Shown here: piece after piece, positions 11,488 to 34,513 of the stretch | Layout: every line of letters begins with the position of its first letter | Numbering within the stretch: position 1 is the first letter of the stretch | NCBI GenBank assembly: GCA_964599845.1 | Contig: CAZRHM010000001.1 | Span: 1-36,189 of the forward strand | Reading direction: 5' to 3' | Length of the DNA stretch: 36,189 nucleotides | Source of the DNA: an uncultured Candidatus Saccharibacteria bacterium | GTDB taxonomy: Bacteria > Patescibacteriota > Dojkabacteria > J137 | Program-made: the position numbers and the translations under genes | Notes under the pieces: model-generated | Database searches by the model: none | What the model was told of the DNA's origin: nothing | The model's input: only the letters and a program-made list of their open reading frames with translations

Positions 11488-12483
11488 TTATGGGTACCGC
11501 ATCTTGATCTTTTTTGGTGTAGGGCAATTCCACCGCAGATCACAGATATTGCAGTCCTGATCACTGATTGCGCCTGGTTTTGCAGGAGGAAAGTAATCCT
11601 GCAAGCGAGCCAACTCAATGTCTTCTACCGTTCTAGCAAATGCTTCCATTGCCTCATCAATTTCGGGTGTATTCAGTGGCACTTCCATTATCGCATTCAC
11701 AGGTCTTTGCTGCGGTGGCCTATCTCCATCCAGTTCATTAATGAAGTACAGTATTGCACGCTTCGGACGGACACCATGTTTCCACTCATAAAGCCTCGAA
11801 TACACTTGCATCTGAAAACGATATGTTTCTATATCGCGAGGCTTTAAGTTAAGAGGGTCCACACCTTTGTAGTCCCAAATCTCACAATCAGAATACTGAT
11901 TCGATTCTGTTTCAGGATTTACCAGCAAGTCCACAACCCCTTGAACAATGTGGTCTCCCCTATCAGCCTGTAAGCGATGCTCCGTATCCTGTACACGAGG
12001 ATATAGCTCGGGCCCCTCAAGAGCATTGAAGTATTGTAACACTCGAACTGCTTTTAGCCTTAGATCTGATGTAATTGCCCTAATTCCCCGGCTTTTTAAG
12101 CCATTTTCGACCTCTATGAAGTATCTTACTATATCGCCTGGTGCATCAGGAACCTTGGTGTCCTTGGTTTCTGCTTCTTTAAGCTCTTCAAAGTATTCTT
12201 GAATAACTTCATCGGCGATAGGTATACAGTTATCTGGGAAATTGCCCTTTGTACTTGCATCAATTAAACCCAAATAGTGTGTGTGGCAACGATCCAGTAC
12301 CTGATGAATGATTTGCCCAAAGTAGAGTTGGGTTTGATGTGCAGGCGCATAGTTGTAAACTCGAAACGCACCGTACTGACGTGAGCAGCGGCGAAAAGCA
12401 ACTATATCTGTAGTCAGGCTATAGCGTCGCTTAACTGGATTTTCTGCGCTTTTAGGAACTTGAAAGTTAAACGGCCCGGTCAT
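11488..12483 (-). CDS. PD-(D/E)xK nuclease, Cas4/RecB/AddB-like with a four-Cys (Fe-S) cluster
   Basis: Motifs are 'FRRCSRQY' (first Cys), 'VDLL...CEIWDYKG' (D...ExK), 'QMQVYSRLY' (QxxxY) and C-terminal 'CNICDLRWNC'. The start was set at ATG 12483, 13 nt after the helicase stop. Confidence 0.75.
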   Translation of the reverse strand: MTGPFNFQVPKSAENPVKRRYSLTTDIVAFRRCSRQYGAFRVYNYAPAHQTQLYFGQIIHQVLDRCHTHYLGLIDASTKGNFPDNCIPIADEVIQEYFEELKEAETKDTKVPDAPGDIVRYFIEVENGLKSRGIRAITSDLRLKAVRVLQYFNALEGPELYPRVQDTEHRLQADRGDHIVQGVVDLLVNPETESNQYSDCEIWDYKGVDPLNLKPRDIETYRFQMQVYSRLYEWKHGVRPKRAILYFINELDGDRPPQQRPVNAIMEVPLNTPEIDEAMEAFARTVEDIELARLQDYFPPAKPGAISDQDCNICDLRWNCPTPKKIKMRYP

Positions 12484-12496
12484 GTGAATTATGCCT

Positions 12497-16170: not shown

Positions 16171-16386
16171 ATGACCTACCTGAAACCACAAATCGCATGG
16201 GGCCGCTTTACTTTACTCACCCTGATTCTCGCTGGCACTGCCATCGGGCGTAAGCTGGGCTTTGGCTTTGATGAAGCCCTCTACTTCGCTATGTTGTTTC
16301 TGATCATCAGCGCCTGGGCATTGAACCGCTATCTGCAGCATCAGGCACACGAACCTACTGACGGAATGGCGGAGGATGAACGGTGA
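16171..16386 (+). CDS. Small two-TM membrane protein
   Basis: It has two hydrophobic segments ('FTLLTLILAGTAI', 'ALYFAMLFLIISAWAL'). Its stop overlaps the GTG start of the coupling protein (GTGA). Confidence 0.45.
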   Translation: MTYLKPQIAWGRFTLLTLILAGTAIGRKLGFGFDEALYFAMLFLIISAWALNRYLQHQAHEPTDGMAEDER

Positions 16387-18685: not shown

Positions 18686-21334
18686 TTATATAAGCGTCTC
18701 AAATCCTTGATCTGCATTTGGAGGTACAAAATCGGGATCAATGACCATCCTATAATGACCAGCGTTTGCATCTGAGCCTTTTATCATTGTGTAACGCATA
18801 CCACTTGCACCTGCAGTCTGCTGTGCGAACGTCTGCTTTGCCAGCACGACGGGATCATCAACCTTGTTGTCTCCCTTCACCTCAACAATGACATAGCTAC
18901 CATCGTCCAACTGGATCAGAAAATCTGGGTAGTAACTACGAATTGTATGCGACTCGGGATCAATGTATTGAACAAAAAATTCAGATTGCCCATGCGTCAG
19001 CATACCTGTGAAGTATATTCTCGTGACACGATCAGCCCTGAGCAGGTCCCAGAAAAGCGTGTGTTCAGGCGTTGAGTCGAAGCAGTACGGATCAAGATGA
19101 AAACTTTTATTAGTATGATCTGTCACATCATCTCGACGAACAATCAAATCCTTCCGTGCGCTCATTTCGTAGAAGCCTTCGGGAGGGATTTTGACGAGAT
19201 CGACCTCATAGTTTTCGTGACGTTCATACTCTTCAATGTCATATAGCATGTCGAAAAGACGCGGGATAACCCAATCATATAACAGCTCATTGAACTCATT
19301 GACCGCCTTCAGGATACCGGGAATTCTTTCTGCCGTAGACTCAAGGATTTCTTCGATTTCCAAACATGGTTTATTGAGATAGCGAGCAATCTCTGCAACC
19401 AATGAAATGGCGGTGTATTCACGTTTCTTCCTAAACGCAGTGATATCTTCCTCTTTGATCCGTCTCCCTGCTTCGGTTAGTCCTTCTGTCTCACGATGCA
19501 GTAGACGGTACTTTTCTATATCCGCCTTGTCGAACTCAAAGCTGTAGTCTTCTTCAGGTTCACGCTCCACCAAATCGTATCGGCGACGGATGCGGCGCAG
19601 TTTGATTTTTTCTACAGGTTCACTGACCTTCACTTTAACTCGTTCCCGATTATCCCCTCGGCTTTCAAGTTCGTTTACCGATACCCTGAAGTTCTGTTGC
19701 AACTCGTCTTCTAGAATCTCTCGGTTTTCTTCACTGAGATATACATGCCCGGTCTGTTGTCCCACGCCAATCGACCGCAAACAGCGCATGGATGCCTGGA
19801 GGACGAATATCTTTGATCTGGGTTTACGATAAAGGGCCACAGAAAACAGCGACCTACAGTTCCATCCCTCGCGTCCTTTGTTGACAAGAAGAATGAACTG
19901 TTTGTCAGAGTCAGGAGTATCAAGCCGATTAAACTCGCGAATGTCTACACTTGATGTAATCTGATCATCGCCGACATTGACGAGAATTCTGTCAGTAGAA
20001 ATGCCGTATCTAGCGAGAGCAGCCTCCACTGCGGGACGCAACTCATTCTGAAGCTCGTCAATTTGACTCGCGAAGAACGCCATCTTAGGTAATAGTCCTT
20101 CATGCCGTTCATTGAGATCAACATTTTCGAGGAAGTTGTCGATGGCGAAGTTGACGAATTCATCGGACTTGGGATTGGTATAACTGTGAATACGAACCTT
20201 CTTTAGATAGGCCTTATCAATTGCTTCCTGAAGACCAAAAGCATACACAACCTCAGGAAGGATTTGGTTCTTTACATAAGGTGTACCCGTATAGTTGTAG
20301 GCAGCAACTACCTTTGTGCCTGCATTTTTTAGGCTGGTGGCAAGCTCATCAATCGTGAGGGCAAGACTCGTCTTTGTCTTGTTGAGACCCATGTCTCGTT
20401 CGAGTTGGTTGCCAAACGCATGATGAGCCTCATCTACATAGATACCAAGTTGCTCAATGCGACGTAACTTTTCAAATCGCTGATTAGTCGCCAGCTCTAC
20501 CTCATCTTCAGGTTGGTCGAAATCATAGAGATCTTCCAGTTCTTCGTAGACAGAGCCAGATTCATAGGTCGGTCGCCCAAAACCCATTAACATCTCCATT
20601 GGAGATTTCTCTGTATGCTGACGCTTGAGGATGATCTTCTGTGTATTTGAAATGACGATGTTGAAGCGCGATTTATCCAGAATATTGAGCGTCGTTCCTG
20701 CTTCATCCAGGAAGTGAAAACGGATGTTGGTATTCAGCCAATTGACGTATTCCGGTGGAACGACCTTTGTTTTGTCGAATGTCTGGATTTCTCGCAGGGA
20801 TTGTAGTACCGTCTTATCAGGTGCGAAGACTAGGGCATTGTGGCAATAACTTTCGTCTTTAGGGAACTTGTTCGCCAGCAGAAACTCATAGAAAATACAC
20901 GTTGCCATGAGAATCGTTTTGCCGGTCCCCATCGTGAGGGCGAAGATGTAGTTTGAGTATGGTCGACGATACTTACGCATGTATTTGAAGATGTCTTCAA
21001 ATTGTTCTTCTGTCTGCATATCAAACATAGAAAGCTGACGCACGTCCCCACTAACGTTTATTCGCCCCTCGAACTTCCCAGTGTTCTCCATCCATTCTTT
21101 GAACAGCAAGTGGACAGGTTTGTTGTCCAGGTATTCCTTCAGGAAGATATACATTTCCAATGCCTCAAACTGCGGCAGGCGCAGGAAAGAATTGGCATTT
21201 TCTGGGTCGTTGTAGTCCAGGTACTTACGAGTGAGTTCTCGGTAGTTGCGGCGGATGCGCCCCTTGTTGTCCGAGTAAAACTGCCACAACTGATTGAAGA
21301 ACGCGAAGTCCAGTGAGGCGACATTTCTAGCCAT
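18686..21334 (-). CDS. res: Type III restriction enzyme, Res subunit (SF2 ATPase + PD-ExK nuclease)
   Basis: Motifs are 'ALTMGTGKTILMA' (motif I), 'GIYVDEAHHAF' (DEAH box) and the C-terminal 'YYPDFLIQLDDGSYVIVEVKGD' PD...ExK motif. The start was set at ATG 21334 ('MARNVASLDF'), which overlaps the mod stop by 8 nt. Confidence 0.85.
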   Translation of the reverse strand: MARNVASLDFAFFNQLWQFYSDNKGRIRRNYRELTRKYLDYNDPENANSFLRLPQFEALEMYIFLKEYLDNKPVHLLFKEWMENTGKFEGRINVSGDVRQLSMFDMQTEEQFEDIFKYMRKYRRPYSNYIFALTMGTGKTILMATCIFYEFLLANKFPKDESYCHNALVFAPDKTVLQSLREIQTFDKTKVVPPEYVNWLNTNIRFHFLDEAGTTLNILDKSRFNIVISNTQKIILKRQHTEKSPMEMLMGFGRPTYESGSVYEELEDLYDFDQPEDEVELATNQRFEKLRRIEQLGIYVDEAHHAFGNQLERDMGLNKTKTSLALTIDELATSLKNAGTKVVAAYNYTGTPYVKNQILPEVVYAFGLQEAIDKAYLKKVRIHSYTNPKSDEFVNFAIDNFLENVDLNERHEGLLPKMAFFASQIDELQNELRPAVEAALARYGISTDRILVNVGDDQITSSVDIREFNRLDTPDSDKQFILLVNKGREGWNCRSLFSVALYRKPRSKIFVLQASMRCLRSIGVGQQTGHVYLSEENREILEDELQQNFRVSVNELESRGDNRERVKVKVSEPVEKIKLRRIRRRYDLVEREPEEDYSFEFDKADIEKYRLLHRETEGLTEAGRRIKEEDITAFRKKREYTAISLVAEIARYLNKPCLEIEEILESTAERIPGILKAVNEFNELLYDWVIPRLFDMLYDIEEYERHENYEVDLVKIPPEGFYEMSARKDLIVRRDDVTDHTNKSFHLDPYCFDSTPEHTLFWDLLRADRVTRIYFTGMLTHGQSEFFVQYIDPESHTIRSYYPDFLIQLDDGSYVIVEVKGDNKVDDPVVLAKQTFAQQTAGASGMRYTMIKGSDANAGHYRMVIDPDFVPPNADQGFETLI

Positions 21335-23171
21335 GCCGAACCTCCTGCTCCAGTGATTCGGAGAGCAAATCGGTGATCTTGATGCGGATCGTACCAGCAT
21401 CGTCCGGGATGGGGTACTCGCCTATCACCAGTTTGTTTTTGTCCGGTATGTCAACGACAATCGGTTGAAGCACTGCGCCATCGTAATTCCAGTCGATCAT
21501 GATCGACTCAACCAGTTCCCGCCAGTCTTCGACCTTCTCCGCTTGTAAGCTGAGCTTGGATAGCAGGTTCATGGGATAGAATTTCTCAATGACCAGCTTG
21601 CCATCTCGAGTGATGATCTTGGCTTCCGAGTCGCGCTTGAACTGAATTTCCTGCTTATCCCGCAGGATGTCCACAACATCTACATCTAGGATGTATGGTG
21701 AAACCTGTTGTTTGAGATGAGCGGCCAGATCAGGTTCATGCCCCATGCACACCAATGTGATTTTCTCGACTGGGCGATTCGGATGCTCGGCATAGCGGCG
21801 TTCAAACGCTCTATAGTCCATATTGCTGAGCAGGGGATTGAGGTCTTCTCGTGTAGCAATGCGATTGACCGGCATGATCTTGACCATGCGGCCATCTTTT
21901 TCACCATCAAAGAGATGAGCTTCAGCGAGAGGATTAACTTCTAGTGCCTGGATCAGTAAATCACGAGCTTCAACAGGATTGCGAAATACGTCATAGTGAT
22001 TGACGTTATAGACCTCAAATCCAGTATAGTGGATGCTGATTTCATCTTCATCTGTGGAAAAATCAAGTTTCTTCTGACCTGAGTTAAGTTCTTTTGCGAT
22101 AGCAATCAGGCGTTTTGTCGTTGTCTGTATAGCCCCCAAGTTAATGTCCGCGCCGATAAAGCGTCGTCCTGTTTTCATCGCAACGGCTTGAGTGGTTCCA
22201 CTCCCCATAAAACAGTCGAACACTAAGTCGCCTGGCTTTGACATAGACAAGATCACGCGCTCGAGCAACGCCTCAGGTTTCTGTGTATCATAACCTGTAT
22301 CTTCTTTTGCAGAATTGTTCACCTTGTCGAGATTCCACACATCGTCAGCAGGTCTTCCTGATGCCATTGCCTCCTCTAGGTATCTTTTTACTCTTTTCCC
22401 ATTCCCTGCATCAGAAAGAACATACTCCTGCCCTTGCTCATCAACCAGTATCGCTTGTTTTCTAACTCGCACATATTCTTCTTTCGACTCCCAAGGTATC
22501 GCATAAGAATTAAACATAGGCGTACTAGTCTTGCTATAGTAGATGATTACATCGTGACGACGGTTGAAGTATTTATTACCATGACGATTCCAGCCACTGT
22601 AGTGCCACACAATTTCATTTTGAAAGTTTTCCTTGCCAAAGACTTCATCAAGAATAACGCGGAGATAGTGGCTTTGATGCCAGTCACAGTGCAAAAATAC
22701 GGCACCTGAGTCCGTTAGCAATTCTCGAATTAGTATCAATCTCTCATACATAAACTGCAAATACTGGTCGTTCACCCAAATATCTGAATACTGTTTTTCT
22801 TCAAATGATGTTCTGTCACTTGATATCTCACCCCCCCTCAGAGTTATTGTTTTTTTGTAATCAGCCTTTGAAGCAAAGGGTGGGTCTATATATACCAGTT
22901 GGATAGCGCCGCGATACTCTTTCAAGAGATGGCTCATCACTTGGAGATTGTCTCCCCAGTAAATCTTGTTGCGCCATCTGTTAGTTTCAGTACCATAAGT
23001 TTCTCTATGCTGAGCAGGATAATATTGAGTTGATGTAAAAGGCTTCTTTCCATGCCAGTGGAGCATTGGATAGCCCTTGATTGGCTCAAATCTATACTCA
23101 TCAACCCGTTCAAGCGGTTTCTCAGCAGCATCCAGCCCAAGCGACTGCTGTAAGTTATCTGTGTCTGTCAT
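21327..23171 (-). CDS. mod: Type III DNA methyltransferase, Mod subunit (N6-adenine/N4-cytosine, beta class)
   Basis: Motif IV 'LVYIDPPFASKADY' comes first, followed ~220 aa later by motif I 'LVFDCFMGSGTTQAVA'. This motif order, and the position upstream of res, are typical of type III Mod. Confidence 0.85.
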   Translation of the reverse strand: MTDTDNLQQSLGLDAAEKPLERVDEYRFEPIKGYPMLHWHGKKPFTSTQYYPAQHRETYGTETNRWRNKIYWGDNLQVMSHLLKEYRGAIQLVYIDPPFASKADYKKTITLRGGEISSDRTSFEEKQYSDIWVNDQYLQFMYERLILIRELLTDSGAVFLHCDWHQSHYLRVILDEVFGKENFQNEIVWHYSGWNRHGNKYFNRRHDVIIYYSKTSTPMFNSYAIPWESKEEYVRVRKQAILVDEQGQEYVLSDAGNGKRVKRYLEEAMASGRPADDVWNLDKVNNSAKEDTGYDTQKPEALLERVILSMSKPGDLVFDCFMGSGTTQAVAMKTGRRFIGADINLGAIQTTTKRLIAIAKELNSGQKKLDFSTDEDEISIHYTGFEVYNVNHYDVFRNPVEARDLLIQALEVNPLAEAHLFDGEKDGRMVKIMPVNRIATREDLNPLLSNMDYRAFERRYAEHPNRPVEKITLVCMGHEPDLAAHLKQQVSPYILDVDVVDILRDKQEIQFKRDSEAKIITRDGKLVIEKFYPMNLLSKLSLQAEKVEDWRELVESIMIDWNYDGAVLQPIVVDIPDKNKLVIGEYPIPDDAGTIRIKITDLLSESLEQEVRHG

Positions 23172-26071
23172 TCTTGTCTCCTAAAGCTCCAGTTTTTTGC
23201 ATCACAGTAGTTGAGCAGGTCGCAGTTTTTGCAGAGTTTCGCCGGACGCTCAGCTATCGTGAAGTCCTTTTCCTCAATGCGTGCCACTACTTCGTCAAAC
23301 GATGCAATAGTTCGTTCAATTGAGCGATCATTTTTCTCAAACGTGATATACGGGTTGCCTGATTCTTCGCCTGTATAGTACAGATGTGTCTTGCTTACCG
23401 CCAGTCCTGTACGCTCCTCGACGATGTGTGCGTAAACCTCAAGCTGGCGGCGATACTGGTTGAGCTTCTCACGATCTTTGGGGTCATTCACATCCAGTTT
23501 ATTCTCGGACTTAAAATCAATTAGCTCAACCGTGTCGCCTTCACCGGCGATCAGGTCAACCGTCCCGCGCAGGATGTACGTGTCTTTGACGAGTGATACA
23601 TCAACCTCTGCTTCCTGAATGTGCGACCAATCTTGCTTATGTGCCCAGTAGTAGCGGATAACGTGCTCCAATGCCTTATCTTTTACGAATGGCGCTAGAT
23701 AGACACGCTCTTTACGGGTGAGATAGGCATAGTTGGTGTCAAACCATGCAGCGACCTGATCCTCCGTCAGTTTATGTTCCTCACCCCGCAGTACCGTCTT
23801 ATGAATGTCCTCAATCGTCTGGTGAACCAGTGTACCAAACAGGATCGGACTACGCCGAATTGCGGCGAACTCTAACTCACGATAAAAGCGATACTGCTCA
23901 GCACAGTTTTCAAACACCGTGATGTGGGAGGTGAAGGAGTATTCCCGCTTGAGGTTGACATCTTTTACCTGTTCCAACTCAATGCGACTCAGGTTGACTG
24001 ACGGATCATACCAGTAGGGAAGTTTATCATAATAGCTTCGGAAATAACTGGATGGGCGTTGCCAGCGCCCTTGTCGCACCTCACTTGTTGATAACACCAG
24101 TAGGTTCTGGGCACGAGAATATGCTGTGTAATACAAACGCCGGAAGTCGTAGTATTTTGTCTGCTCTAGCGGCTCGAATGCCGCGCGAGAGAGGTATCCG
24201 CGCTCCAAGATTTCATCGAGATCGGTGTACTGCTTTCGCGGTGAGGTATATAGTGACCCTACGATCACCACCGGAAACTCCATTCCCTTCGACTGGTGGA
24301 TCGTCAAAAATGAGACATGCCCGCTCGGTGCATACTCCCCATCATCCTCATATTCGTTGATGCCGCCATCGTACAGAAAGCGCAGGAAGCGATTGAACAG
24401 GTCGCGCAGATTCTTCTCCAGAAAAACTGGGTTCAGGACCGTGATATTATGCAAATACTCGAACTTGTTGAGCATCTGAGAGAGTAGGCCGAGGTTACGC
24501 ATCGGGCGGCTGTTCATCAACCCGTCCCGCAAATATTCCTCATTGAGGTAGCGACTGAACAGTGGGAACTGGAGGAGTTGGTAGAACAATCCAGTAAAGC
24601 CATAGTCAGTGTTCTCTGCAAGCGTGACGTGTCGTGTGGCAATATTCCGTGCCCATCGCAGCAGAGAGGCGTTTTCAGGTTTACGCAACTCAGCGGCGAA
24701 TAAGCGAACGCATTCATTGTCATAGTAGTTCCAGATGTCCAGATGAGCATCATCTGACCACTTCCGCACCTGCGGGAATTGCGGGAACAGAAAAATCAAC
24801 GCGCCGAGCATCAAGCGGATTTCTTCGCGGCTGAAGAACTGGTTTGAGCGTGGCGAATACACCGGGATGCCATTCTCTTCAAGAAACTCTGCTAACCCAG
24901 TGACCCGCTCTTGCTTTACCGACCTGAAAAGAAAGGCAACCTGATTCCAATCTGTCAGATTGCCTCGGTCACGCAGGGCATGGAGAAATGCCAGAACTTG
25001 TTCATGCCAACCATCGATTGTTTCAGCTCCAACACGAACAATCGCTGGCGCATTCGGGAACGTCTTCTCCTGCGGGCGGATAGTCTTGGCATAGCGAAAA
25101 GTCTGGCCGTTATGTGTCCAGCGTTGGTCATCCATCCACTGGTTATAGAAGTCAATGATTTCAGGGTGGGATCGATAGTTCGTTTCCAAGGATACCTGCT
25201 TGCATTCAGCGAAGTTATCCCGAAATTGGAGAATATTGCGGATCGTGGCTCCACGAAAACGGTATAAGCCTTGGTCGTCATCTCCGACCACACACAGATT
25301 TGGGTTATCATTTCCTACGAGGGTTCTAAGCAGCAATTCTTGGATTGTATTGGTGTCCTGATATTCATCGACCATAACGTGGGAAATGCGTGATCGGAGT
25401 TCTTCCAGTATGTGAGGGTAGTTCTGGAGTAGCCTCAAAGCTTCTAGTTGGATCGAAGAAAAATCCAGTGCGTTTGCTTCAGTCAGCAACTCCTGGTAAC
25501 GTTGAGCACAGCGTCCCAGGGAACGCACTTCTGCATCTGATGCAGATAGCAGGTCAGTCGGGTTGAGCGCCTCTTCACTTACCACATTCACCCACTTAGC
25601 GATGTCCTGTGTACGTTGCCAGTTATTCAACGTTGCTGACAGCAAATCAATATCTTCAAGGTCATCGAACTCACTCAAATTTTGGTATATGAAATACTGC
25701 TGATCAAATTGATCCATCATCATGAAATTGCGCTTAAGGCGAGTAAATTCACGATGCTCCTGTAACCAGCGCAAACAGATCGAGTGAAACGTGCCGAGAT
25801 ACATCTCATTCAAGTTGAGACGGATACCTATTTCATTCATGCGGTTTGAAACACGAGTAGTCAGCTCAGCCGCCGCCTTGTCGGTGAAGGTAACGACCAT
25901 AAGTTGTTCTGGTGACAGGTTTTGACTCGTCACCAGATAGATGATCCGCTCCACAAGTGTGAAAGTTTTTCCCGAACCGGGTCCGGCGATGATTAGCATC
26001 GGGCCGTCGCTGGTGATGATAGCTTCTCGTTGCTGCGGATTCGCCCTATCAGAAATAATAGTGGTCGTCAT
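23168..26071 (-). CDS. UvrD-family SF1 helicase fused to a C-terminal Cas4/RecB-like PD-(D/E)xK Fe-S nuclease (967 aa)
   Basis: Helicase motifs are 'IIAGPGSGKTFTLV', 'VMVDEYQDTNTIQ', 'VVGDDDQGLYRFRGA', 'LTIHQSKGMEFP' and 'LYYTAYSRAQ'. Nuclease motifs are 'FENCAEQY', 'VDLI...VELIDFKS', 'QLEVYAHIV' and 'CKNCDLLNYC'. Its stop overlaps the mod start (ATGA at 23168-23171). Confidence 0.85.
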   Translation of the reverse strand: MTTTIISDRANPQQREAIITSDGPMLIIAGPGSGKTFTLVERIIYLVTSQNLSPEQLMVVTFTDKAAAELTTRVSNRMNEIGIRLNLNEMYLGTFHSICLRWLQEHREFTRLKRNFMMMDQFDQQYFIYQNLSEFDDLEDIDLLSATLNNWQRTQDIAKWVNVVSEEALNPTDLLSASDAEVRSLGRCAQRYQELLTEANALDFSSIQLEALRLLQNYPHILEELRSRISHVMVDEYQDTNTIQELLLRTLVGNDNPNLCVVGDDDQGLYRFRGATIRNILQFRDNFAECKQVSLETNYRSHPEIIDFYNQWMDDQRWTHNGQTFRYAKTIRPQEKTFPNAPAIVRVGAETIDGWHEQVLAFLHALRDRGNLTDWNQVAFLFRSVKQERVTGLAEFLEENGIPVYSPRSNQFFSREEIRLMLGALIFLFPQFPQVRKWSDDAHLDIWNYYDNECVRLFAAELRKPENASLLRWARNIATRHVTLAENTDYGFTGLFYQLLQFPLFSRYLNEEYLRDGLMNSRPMRNLGLLSQMLNKFEYLHNITVLNPVFLEKNLRDLFNRFLRFLYDGGINEYEDDGEYAPSGHVSFLTIHQSKGMEFPVVIVGSLYTSPRKQYTDLDEILERGYLSRAAFEPLEQTKYYDFRRLYYTAYSRAQNLLVLSTSEVRQGRWQRPSSYFRSYYDKLPYWYDPSVNLSRIELEQVKDVNLKREYSFTSHITVFENCAEQYRFYRELEFAAIRRSPILFGTLVHQTIEDIHKTVLRGEEHKLTEDQVAAWFDTNYAYLTRKERVYLAPFVKDKALEHVIRYYWAHKQDWSHIQEAEVDVSLVKDTYILRGTVDLIAGEGDTVELIDFKSENKLDVNDPKDREKLNQYRRQLEVYAHIVEERTGLAVSKTHLYYTGEESGNPYITFEKNDRSIERTIASFDEVVARIEEKDFTIAERPAKLCKNCDLLNYCDAKNWSFRRQE

Positions 26072-26359: not shown

Positions 26360-27256
26360 ATGCTCCACGTCTTTAAACTAGACAAAGCAAATGGGTTCGG
26401 AGACATCGAGGAGTTCTATCGAGATTTCACCCCAGTTCTCAGAGATGATTTGTACCGATCAGCAGTTTTCGACTTGCAAAACATTGAATTCCTAACCCTG
26501 GAAGCGTTGCTAGCCTTGATCTGTGCGAGCAAGTTATGGCGTGAAACAAAAGATGAACCAGTGGAATGGCAAACCAGCGATAAGGTTGCACAGTATCTCG
26601 AACGCGCTGATATACTTCATGTTCTAGCCGATGATATTCTTATCGCTGAACTCCCAGATACTCGATGGGATCGAGGTTCGAGTCTTTCATTAATGGAACT
26701 CCGCGAACTCGCGCCTTCTCCAGAGCAAAACAGTTACGATGTCGCTAGTGTCTTATCCGCAACATCTAAGCTACTGCTGGGGCGTGTCAGTACAAAGCAA
26801 CTTGGTAGTACCAGCACGCTAATGAGTGAGATTGCTCAAAATGTAACGCATAGCACATCTACTGGGTATGCGCTTATACAGTCCTATCAAATCGGAAAGA
26901 AGCATCGGGTTCACATTGGGGTGATTGATACTGGAATTGGGATAAAGGAATCACTATCGCCCAAGTATCCCAATCTGCCTCGTCCTTCTGATTACATTCG
27001 TCTTTCGTTGAAATCAGGTGTTACTTCTAAATTAGAGAGCGATGGCTTGGGATTGTATCAGGTAGAGAACATTGTCAGCAAAGATCGTGGTGCGCTGACC
27101 ATACGTTCTGGAACCGCAATGATCCAGTTCTGTAAGGATAGAATGTATCAGTGGGATGGGCTTGAAAACATACAAGGGACACAAGTCTATATAACCATGT
27201 GGGGACAGTATGAGAGCAAGCTCTGGAACTACCTCTTGCAATCTCCTGACAAATAG
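26360..27256 (+). CDS. GHKL-superfamily (histidine-kinase-like) ATPase, SpoIIAB/RsbW-like, with an N-terminal STAS-like region
   Basis: It has N-box 'SEIAQNVTHS', G1 'IGVIDTGIGIKE' and G2 'SDGLGLYQVENIV'. The N-terminal 'VFDLQNIEFLTLEALLALI' looks STAS-like. An alternative TTG start lies at 26342. Confidence 0.65.
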   Translation: MLHVFKLDKANGFGDIEEFYRDFTPVLRDDLYRSAVFDLQNIEFLTLEALLALICASKLWRETKDEPVEWQTSDKVAQYLERADILHVLADDILIAELPDTRWDRGSSLSLMELRELAPSPEQNSYDVASVLSATSKLLLGRVSTKQLGSTSTLMSEIAQNVTHSTSTGYALIQSYQIGKKHRVHIGVIDTGIGIKESLSPKYPNLPRPSDYIRLSLKSGVTSKLESDGLGLYQVENIVSKDRGALTIRSGTAMIQFCKDRMYQWDGLENIQGTQVYITMWGQYESKLWNYLLQSPDK

Positions 27257-27295
27257 CGTATACTACCCATAAGCAAAATCTGCTTAGAAGGCTAA

Positions 27296-27889
27296 ATGGA
27301 CACGCTATCTATTTCCGACTTAGCGCGGACTACCACCTCAACCCCATCTATTTTGGTGACACGCTTCACAGCGAAACGCTACTGGGAAGCTCTCGAGGCT
27401 CGTCTATGTACTTACAACCGCGAGGCAGTATTGCTGTTATCCTTTGAAGGGGTAGACGTGATGGATGCCTCTTTTGCAGATGAGGTGTTTGGTCGTCTCG
27501 CTGTCATGCGTGCTCGAAAGGAGTATCCATTTTGCTACATTATTTTAACGGATATGAGCCAAACATGTGAGGAGAATCTCGAGATGGCGCTCACGACACG
27601 GATTGAGCGGGAACCTAACGATAAGCCTCACCTACGAAACTGTGTGCTCATGAACATGAAGAGTAACAAGGTGGAGCTATGTGGCAAGTACGAAAATCAT
27701 ATACTTGAAACGTTCTCTCTATTGGCATCTAAACGGAGTCTATCGACCAGAGATGCGGCTGATTTACTAGATGTCAGCTTGAATGCAGCGAGTACACGCT
27801 TAAAGACTGTAGCTGATCTAGGACTTGCGAAGCGCGAAGAAGTGCGTGACACACAAGGCAAGCAGTATATCTATCATTCACTCATTTAG
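27296..27889 (+). CDS. STAS-like (DUF4325-type) domain protein with a C-terminal winged-HTH
   Basis: The DUF4325/STAS-like pattern is 'VLLLSFEGVDVMDASFADEVFGRL'. The HTH-like C-terminus is 'LSTRDAADLLDVSLNAASTRLKTVADLGLAKRE'. An 'agaagg' RBS lies upstream. Confidence 0.55.
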   Translation: MDTLSISDLARTTTSTPSILVTRFTAKRYWEALEARLCTYNREAVLLLSFEGVDVMDASFADEVFGRLAVMRARKEYPFCYIILTDMSQTCEENLEMALTTRIEREPNDKPHLRNCVLMNMKSNKVELCGKYENHILETFSLLASKRSLSTRDAADLLDVSLNAASTRLKTVADLGLAKREEVRDTQGKQYIYHSLI

Positions 27890-27928
27890 TTTTTTCTCAA
27901 TGAGTTAAGCAGTTTTCGCTGAGGGCAT

Positions 27929-30900
27929 ATGACGGACTATTTTGACTACTACCTACGTACAATTGTAGAACATTCAGTCGGACTGAAACTTGTCGGCGGT
28001 GGAACGGGCTTGGGTAAAACAAGTCGAATACCTCGCGTTGTTGCTGAAGCGCTGCAAGAGGAACGAAAGGGAATCTACGTTGCAAACCGTATCCAACTTC
28101 TAGAGGAAATGGCGAAGGCAACTGAACCAGGATTTGCTGTGATGCTGCCGCGAGACTTGGAGGCGGTCCGATCCACACTCATGGGGCCATCTAGATGGGC
28201 GTTTGACGAATTACTTCACAGCTCGGTTTTTTCGGCTAACGCAGAACATGTCGATCAGGCGAAACTGCGTCGTGCAGTTCAAACACTTGATGAGATTTTT
28301 CGAACCACTGATGCAAACTTCCTGTCCGGATGGCAAGAACAAACCGCGGATGACTTTTCACGCCAGATTCTGAAGGACGTTCGCAGTGTGATTCTTACTG
28401 CCAAAACCAAGTCAAAATCAGATCATAATTACCTGCTCAAGCACGAAATCGTTCAGCAGCTATTTCCATTCATTGCCTTTAAGCTGCACAAAGAGGCACG
28501 TCTACTGCTTGTCACACTGCACAAGCTATTTTACGGTTTTTTCGATGGGGAGAAGACAATCACAGCCGTCCATTTGAAAAACTATGTGATATTTACTGAT
28601 GAATTCGACTTCTTAGAAAATGACCTGATTCAACTTATTGCACGCTCCCGGCAAATTGAAGACCCGTTCCGATTTGTCGAGTTCTTCTACCGTGAAATGC
28701 AACGCCATAAAATGCAGCTCAAGAACTATCCAGTGTCAGGCTCTGAGGACATTACACGCCGTATCGAAAAGATACTACATGAGATAGAACTTCTTCATTC
28801 GGAGAACATCCGTTACCCTGATATTAATCAGTTCATCAGTACTGAAGAGCCAAACGATGCTGCAATTTTCCGTACAAGTCACACGGTCAGCTCGTCCCCG
28901 ATATATCTTTGTCACACTGAACGTGCGTTCAACATTGTGAGCGATCCAGCGAACTGTCCACATGAAGTATTCAGCGCCCGACGTTTGTTTACAGCTGTTT
29001 CAGCGGTGAGTGAGCAGATTCTCACATTACTGAAGGAATTAGAGGCTGAGGATCCAGAGACACATCAAGGTCTAATCGCAGATTGCTATCGAAACACCAT
29101 CTTCCCCCCTCAGATTCAGCAAGTATCTCAGTTCCCACGTCGTCGACCACCGCAGACAAGCCGATTGGGAGCTTTGCTCGATGCAGGGTACAGCATGTAT
29201 GACATCCACTATATCGCAAAGGCTACGGATCCAGAAGAAGTGGAGTTAAGAAATTACGCCATTTATACCACTCCCGAAAAATTCATCAGCACACTCGCTG
29301 AGAAAAACCTTGTCTTTGCACTGTCTGCAACAGCTGATATTCACCGATGTGTCAATCACTTTGACCTGCGTTGGTTAGGGGCAAAAGATGGCATCAACTT
29401 ACTGCTGCCCGACACCTATGACGAGCAGATTGTCGGCGAACTTAACGCCAAGAAATCGGATATTCGAAACAATCGGCTTGATGTAATTCGTCTCGAGGAA
29501 CTGGATAATCGGCTGCCGCTTGAAAAGCAAATACGGCGCTTCATCTCAACAGCATTCCAAATGGATGGATTCGGACAAGACACGAAAGAGGGACATCTCA
29601 AACGGCGTGTGGAGCGCTTTTTTGCCAGTCTGTTCATCGCAAGTGAAGGGGAACAATTGGTAGATGAAGTACAATCCCATCTCGTCTTTCTTAACACGTA
29701 CCGAGACATTGAGAATCTGTTCAAGAACGAGATGTTACGAAGCTCTCCTTTTTACGAAATTCGACCACTTCTAGATCGTAGACTATTCACTGGTTATGAA
29801 CTTGACTTCAATGGACAGACATTCATTATAGTATTTTACAACGCGGAACAGGCAAAACGTATTCGGCAGACGGAGGATGCCGAAAAGGAATTCAATGCTC
29901 TGTTCCATGAGGGGTTACCTGTCATCGTCGTTACTCAATATCTCACAGCAGGTAACGGTGTAAATCTGCAATATAAACTTGCAGATGGTAGGGAGAGAGA
30001 TTTTCTAAATCTCTACCTGTTGGAAGTTCCTTATTTCTACTTTAGCGGCATTTCTAGTGATGACGTCGCTGAAGAAAAGGCAGCCAAACTGAAAGAAAAC
30101 CTCTGGTATCTGGCAAAACTTCATGCCTCTAAATTCCTTAGCGAGAACGAATTCCGAGCAAAACTCAGCACACTGCATAAACCTGCTGACTGGAATAATA
30201 CATATCAACATCATCCGCGGATGACCTTCGACTATCAGCTAAACACTGTCGCAGCACTCATACAAGCTCTGGGCCGCATTGAAAGAGTTTGGGAAACACT
30301 ACCAGACCAGACCGTCATCTTGTGTAGAGAAGCATTTCATGCTTTCCAACGCTTTCTCGACCCTGAATATGACGATGTTCGAGAAACACGCTCACCTATG
30401 ATTTCACCCAATCTTCGAGCACTGATGGAACGAGTGGAGGAACAAATCCCCGCACGTGAACGGGCAACGCGGCGAAAAAGTGATCCACGACTTGCAGAAC
30501 AAGATGAAGTTTGCAAGCAGAATATTATCCGAATGGTTGAACAGTTCAAGGATATTCGTACCGGCGATGACAAACGACGGCTTACTCGTATATGGCGCAG
30601 ATTGCGGGTTTCTGCACTTCGGCACGATTTTGCAGATGAACTACTCAATGACCTTTCAGCTGTATATACGTCACCGAATGTTCACAATGGTGAGGTGTAT
30701 TTGAGTCCACAACGCGAGTCACTACCAATCAATCATGAACAGCCGGACACAAGGTTCTGGCGATTAAATTCAGTTTACGATGTAGTGGGTGACAACCGCA
30801 TTGTCCGTGAGCATTTTGCGAGAAATGGTTATGAGCTAGATTTTGATATGGACGGGCAAAACTGTTTTGTGCCTTACTTCCATCAAGCCATATTATCCGG

Positions 30901-31366
30901 AGCTGTCGGGGAGGAAGCAATTACAGCGCTGTTGACTGAGCGTGGGATTCCCATCGTAGAACTTCCCACAGAGTTATTTGAGGTTGCTGACATCAAAGTT
31001 CAAACGATGCCCTGGTACATCGACTGTAAAAACTACTCAGACTCGACTATGGAACGATTCCTGCTCGGACCTGATGATGATGGTTTCTACCACAAGTTTT
31101 CTGGTACTTACTTCAAAAGACGCGCCATCGAAAAGTGGCAGTTGATCACAGAGTTTGAAGGTCGTTCAGGACATCTTATCTTTGTGAACACTACCACCAC
31201 CCAGGAACGCTTATTGCAGTATTTCCGTTGCGAGGGGTCGGAACTCGTGCCAGTTCACCACTTTCGACAGGCTCATGTTGTAATTGCTCCTGGCGCACTC
31301 ATCTCAGATCATCCCAATCAGTATCATCAATCATTTGTTCGTCTTCTGAATGACATGGAGAGCTAA
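27929..31366 (+). CDS. Large SF2 helicase (DinG/Rad3-like) fused to a C-terminal PD-(D/E)xK (restriction-endonuclease-fold) domain
   Basis: Helicase motifs are 'LVGGGTGLGKTSR' (motif I), 'VIFTDEFDFLE' (II), 'ALSATAD' (III), 'VTQYLTAGNGVNLQ...LYLLEVPYFYF' and 'LIQALGRIERV' (VI). The C-terminal 'GEEAI...EVADIKV...WYIDCKNY' fits an E...D...D-x-K nuclease core. Confidence 0.65.
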   Translation: MTDYFDYYLRTIVEHSVGLKLVGGGTGLGKTSRIPRVVAEALQEERKGIYVANRIQLLEEMAKATEPGFAVMLPRDLEAVRSTLMGPSRWAFDELLHSSVFSANAEHVDQAKLRRAVQTLDEIFRTTDANFLSGWQEQTADDFSRQILKDVRSVILTAKTKSKSDHNYLLKHEIVQQLFPFIAFKLHKEARLLLVTLHKLFYGFFDGEKTITAVHLKNYVIFTDEFDFLENDLIQLIARSRQIEDPFRFVEFFYREMQRHKMQLKNYPVSGSEDITRRIEKILHEIELLHSENIRYPDINQFISTEEPNDAAIFRTSHTVSSSPIYLCHTERAFNIVSDPANCPHEVFSARRLFTAVSAVSEQILTLLKELEAEDPETHQGLIADCYRNTIFPPQIQQVSQFPRRRPPQTSRLGALLDAGYSMYDIHYIAKATDPEEVELRNYAIYTTPEKFISTLAEKNLVFALSATADIHRCVNHFDLRWLGAKDGINLLLPDTYDEQIVGELNAKKSDIRNNRLDVIRLEELDNRLPLEKQIRRFISTAFQMDGFGQDTKEGHLKRRVERFFASLFIASEGEQLVDEVQSHLVFLNTYRDIENLFKNEMLRSSPFYEIRPLLDRRLFTGYELDFNGQTFIIVFYNAEQAKRIRQTEDAEKEFNALFHEGLPVIVVTQYLTAGNGVNLQYKLADGRERDFLNLYLLEVPYFYFSGISSDDVAEEKAAKLKENLWYLAKLHASKFLSENEFRAKLSTLHKPADWNNTYQHHPRMTFDYQLNTVAALIQALGRIERVWETLPDQTVILCREAFHAFQRFLDPEYDDVRETRSPMISPNLRALMERVEEQIPARERATRRKSDPRLAEQDEVCKQNIIRMVEQFKDIRTGDDKRRLTRIWRRLRVSALRHDFADELLNDLSAVYTSPNVHNGEVYLSPQRESLPINHEQPDTRFWRLNSVYDVVGDNRIVREHFARNGYELDFDMDGQNCFVPYFHQAILSGAVGEEAITALLTERGIPIVELPTELFEVADIKVQTMPWYIDCKNYSDSTMERFLLGPDDDGFYHKFSGTYFKRRAIEKWQLITEFEGRSGHLIFVNTTTTQERLLQYFRCEGSELVPVHHFRQAHVVIAPGALISDHPNQYHQSFVRLLNDMES

Positions 31367-31368
31367 AC

Positions 31369-33801
31369 GTGACTAAATTAACTCGTGCCCCCAGAGAAGT
31401 TACTGCCAAGACCACTGCCATCGAGTTGTACCCACCGTCAGATTTCACTGTTCTTGAGAGTCAATATAGATTAGTGAAGTACGTTCTTCCCCGGATGCTT
31501 GTCTTTACAAAGGATGACAACAAATATGCCAAGATGCATGTTGAAATAAAGGAACATCTGAATGTGCCTTATCGGGTATTTACGTACGATAGGGTCAATG
31601 GAAGCAGGCGTTGGTCGCTCTTCGCACTGTTCCCGGTGAAATCAAATGAGAATGGTGAGACTGATCTGGATTTGCCGGAGCTAACTTATGCTGGCGAGCC
31701 GCTGAAAGCAAAAGTAATTTCTTTCAGTGAGCCTCCGTTACATGTCTTGGTAAAAATTCTACAGGTAGCCTACACACGCAAAGATGAGGATGGTCAAAAA
31801 AAGGCTCGGTTTGTTGGAAATGACAAGTGCTACATCTATGCGATGCCCAGTGATGAACACGGACGTTATCATAAGTGCCTGGAAATAGAAGTCAGGGGAG
31901 ACATTCAAAACGAAAATGTCTTTTATATCGATGGACATGCACGAACGTTCGCTTTAGATTCGACCATAAATCCTGATTACATCAATCAGAACACATATTT
32001 CACCCAAATCCCAATTAAAGACGACATGGTTATCTTCAACCAGGTCAAGCGCAGTACTGTCCAACAATATGCCAAGAACCCTTCATCTGCACCACCGCTA
32101 TACAGACAACGAGCCTTTACAGGTAGGCGAACAACGCTCGATTTTCACTCGATTGAATCACAAGAAGACACGGAGCAAACCCGTGGTTATCTCACCGATA
32201 CCTTCATTCGAGGGTTCTCCAAATACTTGCAGAATTTTGGGTTTCAGGTTGAGTACATCAACCGCGTATTTAAGGAGTTCATCACGGGACCTACCGCAGA
32301 GTTTTCACTGCCGATTGAGAAATTGGGCAAGGTATATGTATATGATGCCCGTATGAGCCGGGAAACTCCTCTCGATCACTTTTTGCAATTGCTACAGGAG
32401 AAATTCCCTGAAGTTAAGTTAGAAGAGATCAATTCGCTGGATGATATTGACACTTCACCTCTCGTTGTCATTGAGGATTGTGAAGACCGCGCTTTCAGGG
32501 GAGGTATGCCCTTAGAAGGTGAAACAGACCCTCACGAAGAAATCTATCGAAGCTATCCGAGCATCCCAAAGCAGTTCATCAACGTGAATACGAACGCCTT
32601 GACTCAAAGAGATGAATCGGGCACCGAAAAAACACTATCTAGAGAAGACTATCTCTCATACGAGCCTATGAAACTCGGCGAGAGTCAAATCGTTATGCTA
32701 TTCAACCAACTGTATCTCAAAGATGTCATTTTGAACACGCGCAGCGTGGCATCATGCCTTCCAGTTCTCTCCGATCTCATGTTCGTTCACCGTGAGCATC
32801 AGATCATTGACGGTGCGAAACGTAAATTTGAAGTTGCATTGCATTTCCTCAATGATAATGTGCAATTCTACGATCTTATCAACGAGGCGGGTGACCGGGA
32901 GGCGTTTCATGATCTCTTGAAGCGATGGGAAGTTGACTGGGATTACAACTATTCTAAAATGGTTGATCGTTATCGTGGTCACGAAGACGGGAAAGACCTG
33001 CCTAATTTCGATGTCATCATAGGACCCGGATTGTTTGTTGAGATTACTGGCGCAAGTGAAGCTGTATTATACGATTACGACGAGATTATTCGGCGCCATG
33101 AGGAATTTGTACAATCGTTTAAGCTAGACGATCTCAAGCTATCTCATAAGTATGATGATATTGTGGATGATCCTGAGCTTACCGAGGATATGCTAGAACT
33201 TTGGGGATATTTGCCTCATCAAAAAATTAGGGGAAAACGTCTAGGAAGACCCAAAAACCAAAGCCATCGAAATGCCATTGAACTGTACGAAAAACTTCAC
33301 GAGTACGATGCGGTACTTGATGATTTGAAGAAACGGTATCCGATGATCAGTTTTCACGAGCTTACTCGCAATGAAGACATCGTTCCAGACATCGTCAGGC
33401 TGTTTGGCAGTGCTCAGACACTTCACAATAAGTATAAGAAGATTGGGATGTTTCTTGGACTCCGCGAAGCGGAAGTGGTTTCAGTGTATACGGGAATTTG
33501 GTATACCTCTGATCTTCGATATGTCATCGGCTCAACAACTGCGATGAACTCGAGTCAAGCAACAGCACACCGCCTTCGTCAATTCATTATCTATCAAGGC
33601 GAAGACAAATTCGATATTGAACCAATGCTCGAGGCCATGAGCGTAACATTCGTTCGTCTGAACCAATACACAGTATATCCGTATTATTTTCACCTCATCG
33701 ACATTTATGTCAACAACGTGATCAAGTACAGGTATAATATGATTAACATTTTAGGTCTCGATCTAGCATCGGGAGATGAAACAGAGGACATCTCTGATTA
33801 G
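31369..33801 (+). CDS. Divergent Argonaute/PIWI-domain protein (PIWI-RE-like), 810 aa
   Basis: The C-terminal 'SQATAHRLRQFIIYQGEDKFDIEPMLEAMSVTFVRLNQYTVYPYYFHLIDIY' parallels the PIWI signature QGT...F...L...T[FY]VR...P.P.YYAHL. A MID-like segment reads 'PLVVIED...EIYRSYPSIPKQFINVNT'. The GTG start lies 2 nt after the helicase stop, with GGAG 8-9 nt upstream. Confidence 0.55.
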   Translation: MTKLTRAPREVTAKTTAIELYPPSDFTVLESQYRLVKYVLPRMLVFTKDDNKYAKMHVEIKEHLNVPYRVFTYDRVNGSRRWSLFALFPVKSNENGETDLDLPELTYAGEPLKAKVISFSEPPLHVLVKILQVAYTRKDEDGQKKARFVGNDKCYIYAMPSDEHGRYHKCLEIEVRGDIQNENVFYIDGHARTFALDSTINPDYINQNTYFTQIPIKDDMVIFNQVKRSTVQQYAKNPSSAPPLYRQRAFTGRRTTLDFHSIESQEDTEQTRGYLTDTFIRGFSKYLQNFGFQVEYINRVFKEFITGPTAEFSLPIEKLGKVYVYDARMSRETPLDHFLQLLQEKFPEVKLEEINSLDDIDTSPLVVIEDCEDRAFRGGMPLEGETDPHEEIYRSYPSIPKQFINVNTNALTQRDESGTEKTLSREDYLSYEPMKLGESQIVMLFNQLYLKDVILNTRSVASCLPVLSDLMFVHREHQIIDGAKRKFEVALHFLNDNVQFYDLINEAGDREAFHDLLKRWEVDWDYNYSKMVDRYRGHEDGKDLPNFDVIIGPGLFVEITGASEAVLYDYDEIIRRHEEFVQSFKLDDLKLSHKYDDIVDDPELTEDMLELWGYLPHQKIRGKRLGRPKNQSHRNAIELYEKLHEYDAVLDDLKKRYPMISFHELTRNEDIVPDIVRLFGSAQTLHNKYKKIGMFLGLREAEVVSVYTGIWYTSDLRYVIGSTTAMNSSQATAHRLRQFIIYQGEDKFDIEPMLEAMSVTFVRLNQYTVYPYYFHLIDIYVNNVIKYRYNMINILGLDLASGDETEDISD

Positions 33802-33919
33802 GAGTTGCTTGCTACTTACAGGTAGCAGGTGTAATTCCCAAGTATCTGCTACCCTTTGCCTATTGCTTATCTCCAAACGGATTGTCAAGCATAAGAAGTT
33901 CATCTCACTAGACAAAAGG

Positions 33920-34513
33920 TCAAGGGATACGTATCCAATACGATCCCTTCTTTTCATCATCTTGGCGCACCTCGAAATCATCAGGATAGTCCGAGATGAA
34001 CTTCAAGAGGCTCTTATACTTCTTGCCTGGTTGCCCCAACCGTTTCGGATTGAGCTTGAAAAATGTCTCATAGAGATGCTGGGAGAGGCGGCTGAAGTTC
34101 ACCCATCCTGCGTCTTGCTGGCGAAGAAAGTCACGCGCCGATTGCAGCACCGCATCCGTATCATAATCGTGTATCGCCTTTGCCGCGATTTCCCGTTTGC
34201 GCTTTGTGTTGCGGGAGTGGGATCGTTTGTTCTTGCCTTTACGTTTTTTCGGCGCATCAGGGTCTTCGATTAATTCGTATTCTGCACCGTAGTCTCGGAT
34301 TACTCGCTCACGCAGCGCCTCCAGTTGATCCTCAGCAACCATGAAAGCCGTGGCTGAATACGCCCAATCCCGTGAGCGGATCAGGTCACGTTCGAGCTTG
34401 GTAAAGCATTCATCACACAGGCTCAGGTCATTAACCGGGCGGAACAGATCACAGCCTGCACAGATCGTGTCGATGATGACTCCATCGTCGTATTCATCCT
34501 CGAAATTGTCCAT
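33920..34513 (-). CDS. Zinc-ribbon + OST-HTH/LOTUS-like domain protein (GC-rich backbone)
   Basis: The N-terminal 'CAGCDLF...LSLCDECF' has two CxxC pairs. There is a basic linker. The C-terminal 'GWVNFSRLSQHLYETFFKLNPKRLGQPGKKYKSLLKFISDYPDDFEV' resembles the OST-HTH pattern. The call rests on pattern memory only. Confidence 0.45.
   Translation of the reverse strand: MDNFEDEYDDGVIIDTICAGCDLFRPVNDLSLCDECFTKLERDLIRSRDWAYSATAFMVAEDQLEALRERVIRDYGAEYELIEDPDAPKKRKGKNKRSHSRNTKRKREIAAKAIHDYDTDAVLQSARDFLRQQDAGWVNFSRLSQHLYETFFKLNPKRLGQPGKKYKSLLKFISDYPDDFEVRQDDEKKGSYWIRIP

Follow-up and report, generated by a model that had tools for sequence, protein, structure and literature searches.

Positions 1-36,189 of contig CAZRHM010000001.1 from an uncultured Candidatus Saccharibacteria bacterium (a stretch of 36,189 nt, here called the window) carry a gene for a 1145-aa helicase-nuclease followed at once by a gene for an 810-aa Argonaute-like protein, and the locus raises the question of what kind of system such a pair encodes. 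A preliminary description of this DNA had filed the pair as a PIWI-RE-type conflict system. We consider it likely that the two genes are instead the core of a four-gene, damage-inducible defence operon resembling DdmDE, in the order capK-like, capS-like, ddmD-like and ddmE-like; homology, protein folds, conservation of catalytic and guide-pocket residues, gene linkage and conserved palindromes, all shown by computation, support this. DdmDE is known from Vibrio cholerae and Lactobacillus casei. It eliminates plasmids and has been characterised through cryo-EM structures and mechanistic work in vivo and in vitro; DdmE, which represents the 'long-C' clade of prokaryotic Argonautes (pAgos), uses DNA guides and is catalytically inactive in both proteins whose structures are solved. 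In the window, four co-directional, closely packed open reading frames (ORFs) lie between 26.3 and 33.8 kb, and this four-gene operon, recognised in the preliminary description, is kept in the closest relatives. The last two ORFs are coupled as had been reported: 2 nt separate the TAA stop of the helicase ORF (31364-31366) from the GTG start of the 810-aa ORF (31369), which has a GGAG upstream.

The preliminary description had seen in the 1145-aa protein an SF2 helicase of the DinG/XPD kind with a PD-(D/E)xK nuclease attached, and both parts are borne out by conservation and by profile matches. The Walker A motif (G24-T31, nt 27998-28021), the DEFD box (224-227, nt 28598-28609), the SAT motif (466-468, nt 29324-29332) and motif VI, QALGRIER (779-786, nt 30263-30286), are invariant in 50 homologues, as are E995, E1018, D1021, D1032 and K1034 of the nuclease core (E995-K1034, nt 30911-31030). 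These five residues align with E1059, E1082, D1085, D1100 and K1102 of V. cholerae DdmD (VcDdmD), all of which are essential to plasmid elimination. A phmmer search of the PDB with the single sequence reached VcDdmD at E = 2.6e-3, in the nuclease domain, and a profile built from the 50 homologues matched VcDdmD at 6.5e-28 and L. casei DdmD (LcDdmD) at 2.5e-12, with no other significant match. Residues 1-327 of the helicase hold no cysteine, and no conserved set of four cysteines occurs across the 50 homologues, so the Fe-S cluster of DinG and XPD is absent, as it is from DdmD according to the published descriptions.

Scanned with Pfam, NCBIfam and PADLOC models, none of the operon's four proteins received an assignment at family level. 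The 810-aa protein matches none of these models, and phmmer with its single sequence found nothing in the PDB; its relation to DdmE came to light through profiles and structure only. A word-indexed search returned 15 homologues and an exhaustive profile search 272 representatives of the family at 50% identity. The 15-sequence profile matched L. casei DdmE (LcDdmE) in the PDB at 5.4e-4, and a profile of 89 sequences matched LcDdmE at 9e-11 and V. cholerae DdmE (VcDdmE) at 3.4e-4 and no other Argonaute. When an AlphaFold2 model of moderate confidence (pLDDT 75, pTM 0.66) was compared with the PDB by Foldseek, ranks 1-6 were all DdmE chains (E from 1.8e-20 to 7e-14), aligned over the whole length with TM scores up to 0.63 on target length. 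Next came Aquifex Argonaute (2e-10), sponge PiwiA (3e-9), Mili (3e-8) and TtAgo (1.4e-7), with the Pseudooceanicola pAgo ranking below TtAgo and classical Argonautes and PIWI proteins continuing down to about 1e-5; every DdmE match thus has an E-value some 3,000-fold or more better than that of any other Argonaute. Judged from this model, the Argonaute/PIWI fold that the preliminary description had proposed is real and DdmE is its nearest family. Comparison of the family profile by hhalign with a canonical Pfam-Piwi pAgo (encoded in a related locus, L011) gave no similarity (probability 0.1%), so the link to Argonautes rests on the structure and on DdmE.

Conservation within the family is concentrated in two segments that the preliminary description had singled out. 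Its MID-like segment carries the most conserved residues (D370, D387, Q402, N407 and K451) and is the candidate counterpart of the pocket that holds the guide 5' end in DdmE (here D370-K451, nt 32476-32721). The VcDdmE pocket comprises Y363, Q376, E401, K405, K674 and E678. Mapped through HMMER alignments, D361-P362-Y363 corresponds to D387-P388-H389 (with Tyr in most relatives), Q376 to the conserved Q402, E401 to Q447 and K405 to the invariant K451, and the region of K674 and E678 has H775 and D778 nearby. No part of the family is better conserved than the C-terminal PIWI block that had been aligned to AGO2 (G709-Y780, nt 33493-33708; ...FVR..QYTVYPYYFHLI...), and this segment aligns to DdmE. 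A further likeness drawn to AGO2, between DDLKKRYPMISFHEL and KLEKDYQPGITFIVV, may be spurious, to judge from the AlphaFold2 model: DDLKKRYPMISFHEL falls in a large, mostly helical predicted insertion at about 570-700.

Where the first catalytic Asp would be expected (β1, 472-474), at most one of the 89 sequences has an acidic residue (0-1/89), and no Asp on the β1 or β4 strands of the PIWI domain is conserved across them. On these grounds the 810-aa protein is predicted to be catalytically inactive and to lack a DEDX tetrad, like both solved DdmE proteins.

Absence of conserved linkage to a DinG-like helicase gene had been named beforehand as one finding that would refute the preliminary description. 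In all 11 related loci, as in the window, a ddmD-like gene is directly followed by a ddmE-like gene; the 11 consist of five genome loci and six contigs recovered via helicase homologues, and the Argonaute-like partner in them measures 759-844 aa. The named relatives are Chloroflexota, from Anaerolineae, Aggregatilineales, Ktedonobacteria (Thermosporothrix, Dictyobacter) and Herpetosiphon. Two sequences (P0299 and P0300), annotated in a metagenome-assembled genome of a Leptolyngbyaceae cyanobacterium, are fragments at least 90% identical to one close helicase homologue (P0017), which points to horizontal transfer beyond Chloroflexota or else to an artefact of binning. In L011, 4.5 kb separate the DdmDE-like pair from the 711-aa canonical pAgo used above, which is encoded upstream (1309-3444) beside a Metallophos/RNase_H_2 gene, so two Argonaute-based systems share one island there.

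The two genes that precede the pair point to how it may be controlled. In the system described by Chambers et al. (EMBO J 2026, PMC13373217), the kinase CapK (HTH-STAS-GHKL, with HTH for helix-turn-helix) is switched on by single-stranded DNA (ssDNA) arising from DNA repair and phosphorylates a conserved serine of the repressor CapS (STAS followed by a winged HTH); the CapS dimer then dissociates and the downstream immune operon is de-repressed. The sites that CapS binds are palindromes in the capK-capS and capS-operon gaps. The N-terminal HTH of CapK is dispensable, and VapK-type homologues lack it (PMC13373217). The first gene of the window's operon, opened mechanically at a TTG (26342, 304 aa), begins in its homologues (292-299 aa, many with PF02518) at the position of the ATG at 26360, giving 298 aa. 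The homologues show no variation in the N-box (E157/N161), the G1 box (D190-G192-G194) or the G2 box (G229-L-G-L), Foldseek ranks the SpoIIAB anti-sigma-factor kinase first (TMt 0.66-0.69) for the AlphaFold2 model of the protein (pTM 0.74), and weak profile matches link the GHKL part to SpoIIAB and residues 16-90 (STAS) to SpoIIAA. N161 stands against N218 of CapK, an offset that fits a missing HTH of about 57 aa, as in VapK-type homologues.

The product of the second gene matches Pfam DUF4325 (2.6e-4; a literature search on DUF4325 yielded nothing useful) and, weakly, HTH/MarR-type models. A profile of five orthologues matches the CapS crystal structures of Chambers et al., 9z71 at 6e-6 and 9z72/9z73 at 2.5e-4, with both domains aligned, and S59 (nt 27470-27472), in an invariant VMDASF motif, aligns with the serine of the CapS DSSF. 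The capK-like and capS-like genes are adjacent in 5/5 loci (the window, L001, L002, L004 and L009). The pair is confined to loci whose helicase shares at least 51% identity with that of the window and is absent from five more distant loci, and we therefore view it as an acquisition of this sub-clade on a two-gene core.

The palindromes of the window reinforce this likeness (Table 1). The pattern TMAGC-N7-GCTKA has three matches in the window against 0.08 expected, and two of them fall in the gaps that also hold the CapS sites in the published system: operator 1 lies just 3' of a TATACT -10-like box, and operator 2 matches in position the second site reported for Enterobacter roggenkampii CapS, between capS and the downstream operon. 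A TATA(C/A)T box followed by the palindrome is kept in L001, L002, L004 and L009, with the palindromes at the same places, and across these four loci the half-sites covary (TAAGC...GCTTA versus TCAGC...GCTGA). Palindromes and homology together support CapKS-type control of the operon through these putative operators, and by analogy DNA damage probably leads the CapK/CapS-like pair to turn the operon on.

Two other elements near these sites deserve mention. The third exact match to the operator pattern (TCAGCACTTATTGCTGA, 6734-6750) lies within a 614-aa ORF (5981-7825) of a separate cluster and may have arisen by chance or serve cross-regulation. Just upstream of operator 2, an imperfect inverted repeat (TTCACTCATTTAG / CTCAATGAGTTAA, 27877-27908) straddles the stop codon of the capS-like gene; its CAATGAGTT element is kept in 3/4 related loci (L001, L002 and L004) and has diverged in L009.

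Table 1. Genes and regulatory features of the putative operon (positions in the window, nt)
Feature	Position	Strand	Content or basis
capK-like gene (298 aa)	26360-27256	+	STAS-like + SpoIIAB-type GHKL kinase
promoter-like site TTGCAA-17-TATACT	27236-27264	+	promoter scan; runs into 39-bp capK-capS gap
palindrome TAAGCAAAATCTGCTTA, putative CapS-like operator 1	27270-27286	+	39-bp capK-capS gap
capS-like gene (197 aa)	27296-27889	+	STAS (DUF4325) + C-terminal winged HTH
palindrome TAAGCAGTTTTCGCTGA, putative CapS-like operator 2	27906-27922	+	39-bp capS-ddmD gap; overlaps ribosome-binding-site region
ddmD-like gene (1145 aa)	27929-31366	+	XPD/DinG-like SF2 helicase + C-terminal PD-(D/E)xK nuclease
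ddmE-like gene (810 aa)	31369-33801	+	long Argonaute-fold protein, predicted catalytically inactive

A switch that responds to damage could also serve DNA repair or replication, in which case the Argonaute-like protein would steer the helicase-nuclease to damaged or stalled chromosomal DNA. Apart from the response of CapK and CapS to DNA damage and ssDNA, this finds support in the ciprofloxacin sensitivity reported for a PIWI-RE knockout and in the action of some pAgos at replication termini. Against it, most published CapKS pairs (348/443) precede immune operons (PMC13373217), and the closest characterised homologues of the two core proteins eliminate plasmids. The operon lies in a low-GC island (42-46% GC, against 55-60% in its flanks) whose neighbours are a cluster with ResIII, methyltransferase and UvrD-nuclease genes, a Dpd-like 7-deazaguanine cluster and a type IV secretion coupling protein, a setting in keeping with defence carried by a mobile element. 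Flanking the related loci are integrases, toxin-antitoxin modules, type I restriction-modification (RM) systems and another pAgo, and the 810-aa family is small and patchy in distribution. We consider a repair or replication module improbable.

The filing as PIWI-RE proposed by the preliminary description would have an RNA-guided PIWI-RE protein act at R-loops on transcribed invader DNA, together with a DinG helicase and a fused REase-fold nuclease. In its logic the pair agrees with pPIWI-RE: downstream of a DinG-like helicase and a REase-fold nuclease comes a divergent PIWI-fold protein, and guide-dependent restriction is predicted for pPIWI-RE. In addition, E564 (80/89, 90%) and R737 (82/89, 92%), conserved on predicted PIWI strands of the AlphaFold2 model, recall the absolutely conserved Arg and Glu that pPIWI-RE proteins carry on an extension of the PIWI β-sheet (PMC3702460). 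However, R737 corresponds to Arg in LcDdmE and to Tyr in VcDdmE, neither residue is conserved throughout the family, and the two are a possible counterpart of the PIWI-RE pair. The pPIWI-RE proteins are defined by a DUF3893 module and a DUF3962 N-terminal domain (Burroughs, Iyer and Aravind 2013, PMC3702460), and none of 54 diverse members of the 810-aa family matches a PIWI-RE (DUF3893/DUF3962) or Piwi Pfam model at E ≤ 1, nor does any protein of the window; the other Pfam matches at this threshold among the 54 are scattered single chance ones. Published pPIWI-RE operons run in the order ZnR-REase, DinG helicase with a Cys-rich Fe-S insert, PIWI-RE (PMC3702460), whereas here the nuclease is fused to the C terminus of the helicase, without a ZnR/Y domain, rather than encoded by a separate first gene, the helicase has no Fe-S cysteines, and the upstream genes encode a kinase and a repressor. 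Protein sizes (about 830-1117 aa for pPIWI-RE; Burroughs supplement) and the N-terminal domain differ as well.

Because DdmD and DdmE are the pair's only significant profile matches and its best structural ones, no PIWI-RE Pfam model matches, no separate REase gene is present and the Fe-S cysteines are missing, we place the pair, from these sequence relationships, as a deep, mostly Chloroflexota branch of DdmDE comprising about 270 clusters at 50% identity, and regard a PIWI-RE identity as very unlikely. The filing under PIWI-RE, tempting as it is, is thereby corrected for purposes of annotation. Nor is the RNA- and R-loop-dependent mechanism attached to it the best expectation, because DdmE uses DNA guides. 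The statement that such systems lack experimental characterisation does not hold, given the structures and mechanistic studies of DdmDE and the biochemical study of one PIWI-RE protein (PMC10991935). A search for literature treating DdmDE and PIWI-RE together found nothing useful.

That within the window's sub-clade the Argonaute-like protein does the cutting as an active nuclease, with the helicase-nuclease as its accessory, would accord with E488, D548 and E564, invariant in the 15 closest homologues, and with an acidic EIED..E stretch (558-564) conserved family-wide, and we give it very little credence, given the β1 position, the presence of D548 in only 35/89 sequences, the Gly at position 554 (the RDG equivalent), the inactivity of both solved DdmE proteins and the invariance of the partner's nuclease residues.

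Several observations nevertheless weigh against a CapKS-controlled DdmDE-like operon, the three invariant acidic residues just named among them. The predicted absence of DEDX is drawn from conservation and predicted secondary structure rather than from residue-level superposition. Identity to the solved DdmE proteins in structural alignments is 12-14%, with TM scores of 0.5-0.63 and a root-mean-square deviation of 8-10 Å. In the guide pocket, His (H389) replaces the stacking Tyr and Gln (Q447) replaces the Mg ligand E401, and guide chemistry could, judging by these residues, differ from that of VcDdmE; LcDdmE is itself already unlike VcDdmE. The PADLOC DdmD model scores 5e-4 and 15.9 bits on the 1145-aa protein, over 70 residues only, and the DdmE model of PADLOC-DB 2.0 (2023) has no match to the 810-aa protein at E ≤ 1. 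Current hidden Markov model definitions thus do not call the pair DdmDE, and since one model is silent and the other barely scores we file it, on sequence grounds, as DdmDE-like, a distant branch. As to the regulators, the capK-like protein starts directly with its STAS-like domain, without the N-terminal HTH of canonical CapK, and its likeness to CapK was judged through architecture and the SpoIIAB-like fold rather than through CapK sequence. The operator half-site, TMAGC with a 7-bp spacer, differs from the published TTAA (PMC13373217), and the main text of that paper does not name DdmDE among the operon types found downstream of capKS.

If the locus is a DdmDE-like operon of this kind, the 810-aa protein, without a catalytic tetrad, would use its MID pocket to hold a short, 5'-phosphorylated guide of DNA and would pair with invading plasmid or phage DNA, forming a D-loop. 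The D-loop would recruit the 1145-aa helicase-nuclease and load it on the displaced strand, along which the enzyme would move 5'-3' on ATP, cutting with its PD-(D/E)xK domain until the replicon is eliminated. Before induction, the STAS-winged HTH protein would dimerise on the TMAGC-N7-GCTKA palindromes ahead of capS and ddmD and repress transcription; ssDNA from DNA damage or infection would activate the STAS-GHKL kinase, which would phosphorylate S59 of the repressor, releasing it from DNA and de-repressing the operon. The kind of guide, its target, movement in the 5'-3' direction, phosphorylation, the sensing of ssDNA and a role in defence we infer by analogy, taking the mechanism from V. 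cholerae and L. casei DdmDE and the expression control from CapK/CapS.

With DdmDE the pair shares its two-gene core, in the same order and nearly contiguous, an XPD/DinG-like helicase without Fe-S cluster that ends in a PD-(D/E)xK nuclease with all five catalytic residues, and a full-length Argonaute fold, predicted to lack DEDX, with a conserved DP(Y/H)...Q...K pattern in its predicted MID pocket and a C-terminal (Y/F)TVxPYxF block. It differs in the size of the Argonaute-like protein (810 aa versus 687-715 aa), in the CapK/CapS-like pair that precedes the core genes in the window's sub-clade, and in its mostly Chloroflexota relatives: DdmDE has so far been described as a system of Vibrionaceae and Lactobacillaceae, and the branch found here is a third and deep one. 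The regulatory pair resembles CapK/CapS in that a STAS-GHKL kinase gene directly precedes a STAS-winged HTH gene upstream of a probable immune operon, with the phospho-acceptor serine and the N-box Asn kept; in lacking an N-terminal HTH the kinase resembles VapK. An RM-like cluster adjoins the pair, as an RM system does in 88/443 published cases (PMC13373217), although the RM-like genes are divergently oriented here. Beyond homologous systems, Loeff et al. have compared DdmDE with Type I CRISPR-Cas, where a guide-bearing, non-cleaving recogniser (Cascade) likewise opens a loop and loads a helicase-nuclease (Cas3) on the displaced strand; the proteins are unrelated, the window holds no CRISPR array, and the guides here are presumably DNA fragments.

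Relatives of the helicase extend further than the Chloroflexota branch. A tblastn search of plasmids with the Argonaute-like protein gave no match. A distant DdmD-like gene, with 22-26% identity over up to 84% of the query, occurs on enterobacterial, mostly conjugative plasmids: one record from Citrobacter freundii (NZ_CP056259.1, L013), 140 from Salmonella, two from Proteus and one from Cetobacterium. On the Citrobacter plasmid the DdmD-like gene (4476-8198) is followed by a gene for an 812-aa 'hypothetical protein' (8203-10641), which hhalign matches to the Argonaute-like family profile with 98.8% probability (E 1.4e-16, 682 columns); PADLOC calls neither member of this pair DdmD or DdmE. 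Regulation also varies among the relatives. Two 1503-aa helicase homologues that are cluster representatives (P0063 and P0072) carry an N-terminal HTH-WYL-WCX fusion of the CapW/BrxR-like kind, L011 encodes an HTH + M78-peptidase protein two genes upstream (5985-7196), and L010 has separate M78 and HTH genes nearby (4308-5575), with a ThiF-containing operon in between. This suggests modular damage-responsive control across the helicase family.

A bolder combined proposal, which we advance tentatively and think rather unlikely, joins a self-amplifying ssDNA loop under the CapK-like kinase to a larger DdmDE-like superfamily with clade-specific damage sensors. The kinase would then sense the same short ssDNA that the helicase-nuclease makes and that possibly serves as Argonaute guides, and first contact or damage would release ssDNA fragments, de-repress the operon and so yield more guides and more degradation. 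The Chloroflexota family and the enterobacterial plasmid relatives would together define a far larger DdmDE-like superfamily, perhaps one that bridges DdmE and PIWI-RE, and its clades would plug in different sensors (CapKS-like pairs, WYL fusions or HTH-M78 proteins).

Both components of the locus are of known, recently characterised kinds. What is new is the deep, previously unflagged branch of DdmDE, its host phylum, the combination with a CapKS-like pair, and the further distant branch on about 145 enterobacterial plasmids. PADLOC-DB 2.0 (2023) misses both branches, so the spread of plasmid elimination by an Argonaute with a helicase-nuclease is underestimated. With this locus an Argonaute-based effector would join the operon types under the CapK/CapS DNA-damage switch, and its two predicted operators, phospho-acceptor serine and kinase Asn would make it a concrete case of inducible pAgo immunity.

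The remainder of the window is rich in related functions. The RM-like cluster (18686-26071, minus strand), divergent from the capK-like gene, encodes a 903-aa ResIII helicase that carries a TnsA-N-like endonuclease domain, a 613-aa N6_N4 DNA methylase and a 966-aa fusion of a UvrD helicase with a PD-(D/E)xK/Cas4-like nuclease. A second low-GC block, at 4044-14683, holds the Dpd-like 7-deazaguanine DNA-modification/restriction cluster, with DUF6884, a TGT/DpdA-like gene, the 614-aa ORF already mentioned (unassigned), a DUF87/HerA-like ATPase, a nucleoside 2-deoxyribosyltransferase, a Vut_1 transporter, QueC, a PD-(D/E)xK protein and a UvrD-like helicase. The type IV secretion coupling protein (TraG/VirD4-like, 16383-18359) lies in a high-GC stretch (55-61%) that separates the two low-GC islands, and the window as a whole may be part of an integrative conjugative element or plasmid. 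At the other edge of the operon, an antisense 196-aa ORF (33920-34513, minus strand) matches an OST-HTH/LOTUS domain at 6.6e-8 where GC climbs to 55%, marking the island boundary; a 165-aa ORF (33776-34273, plus strand) that overlaps the operon end was rejected as a gene, as it overlaps this antisense OST-HTH gene and crosses the GC boundary.

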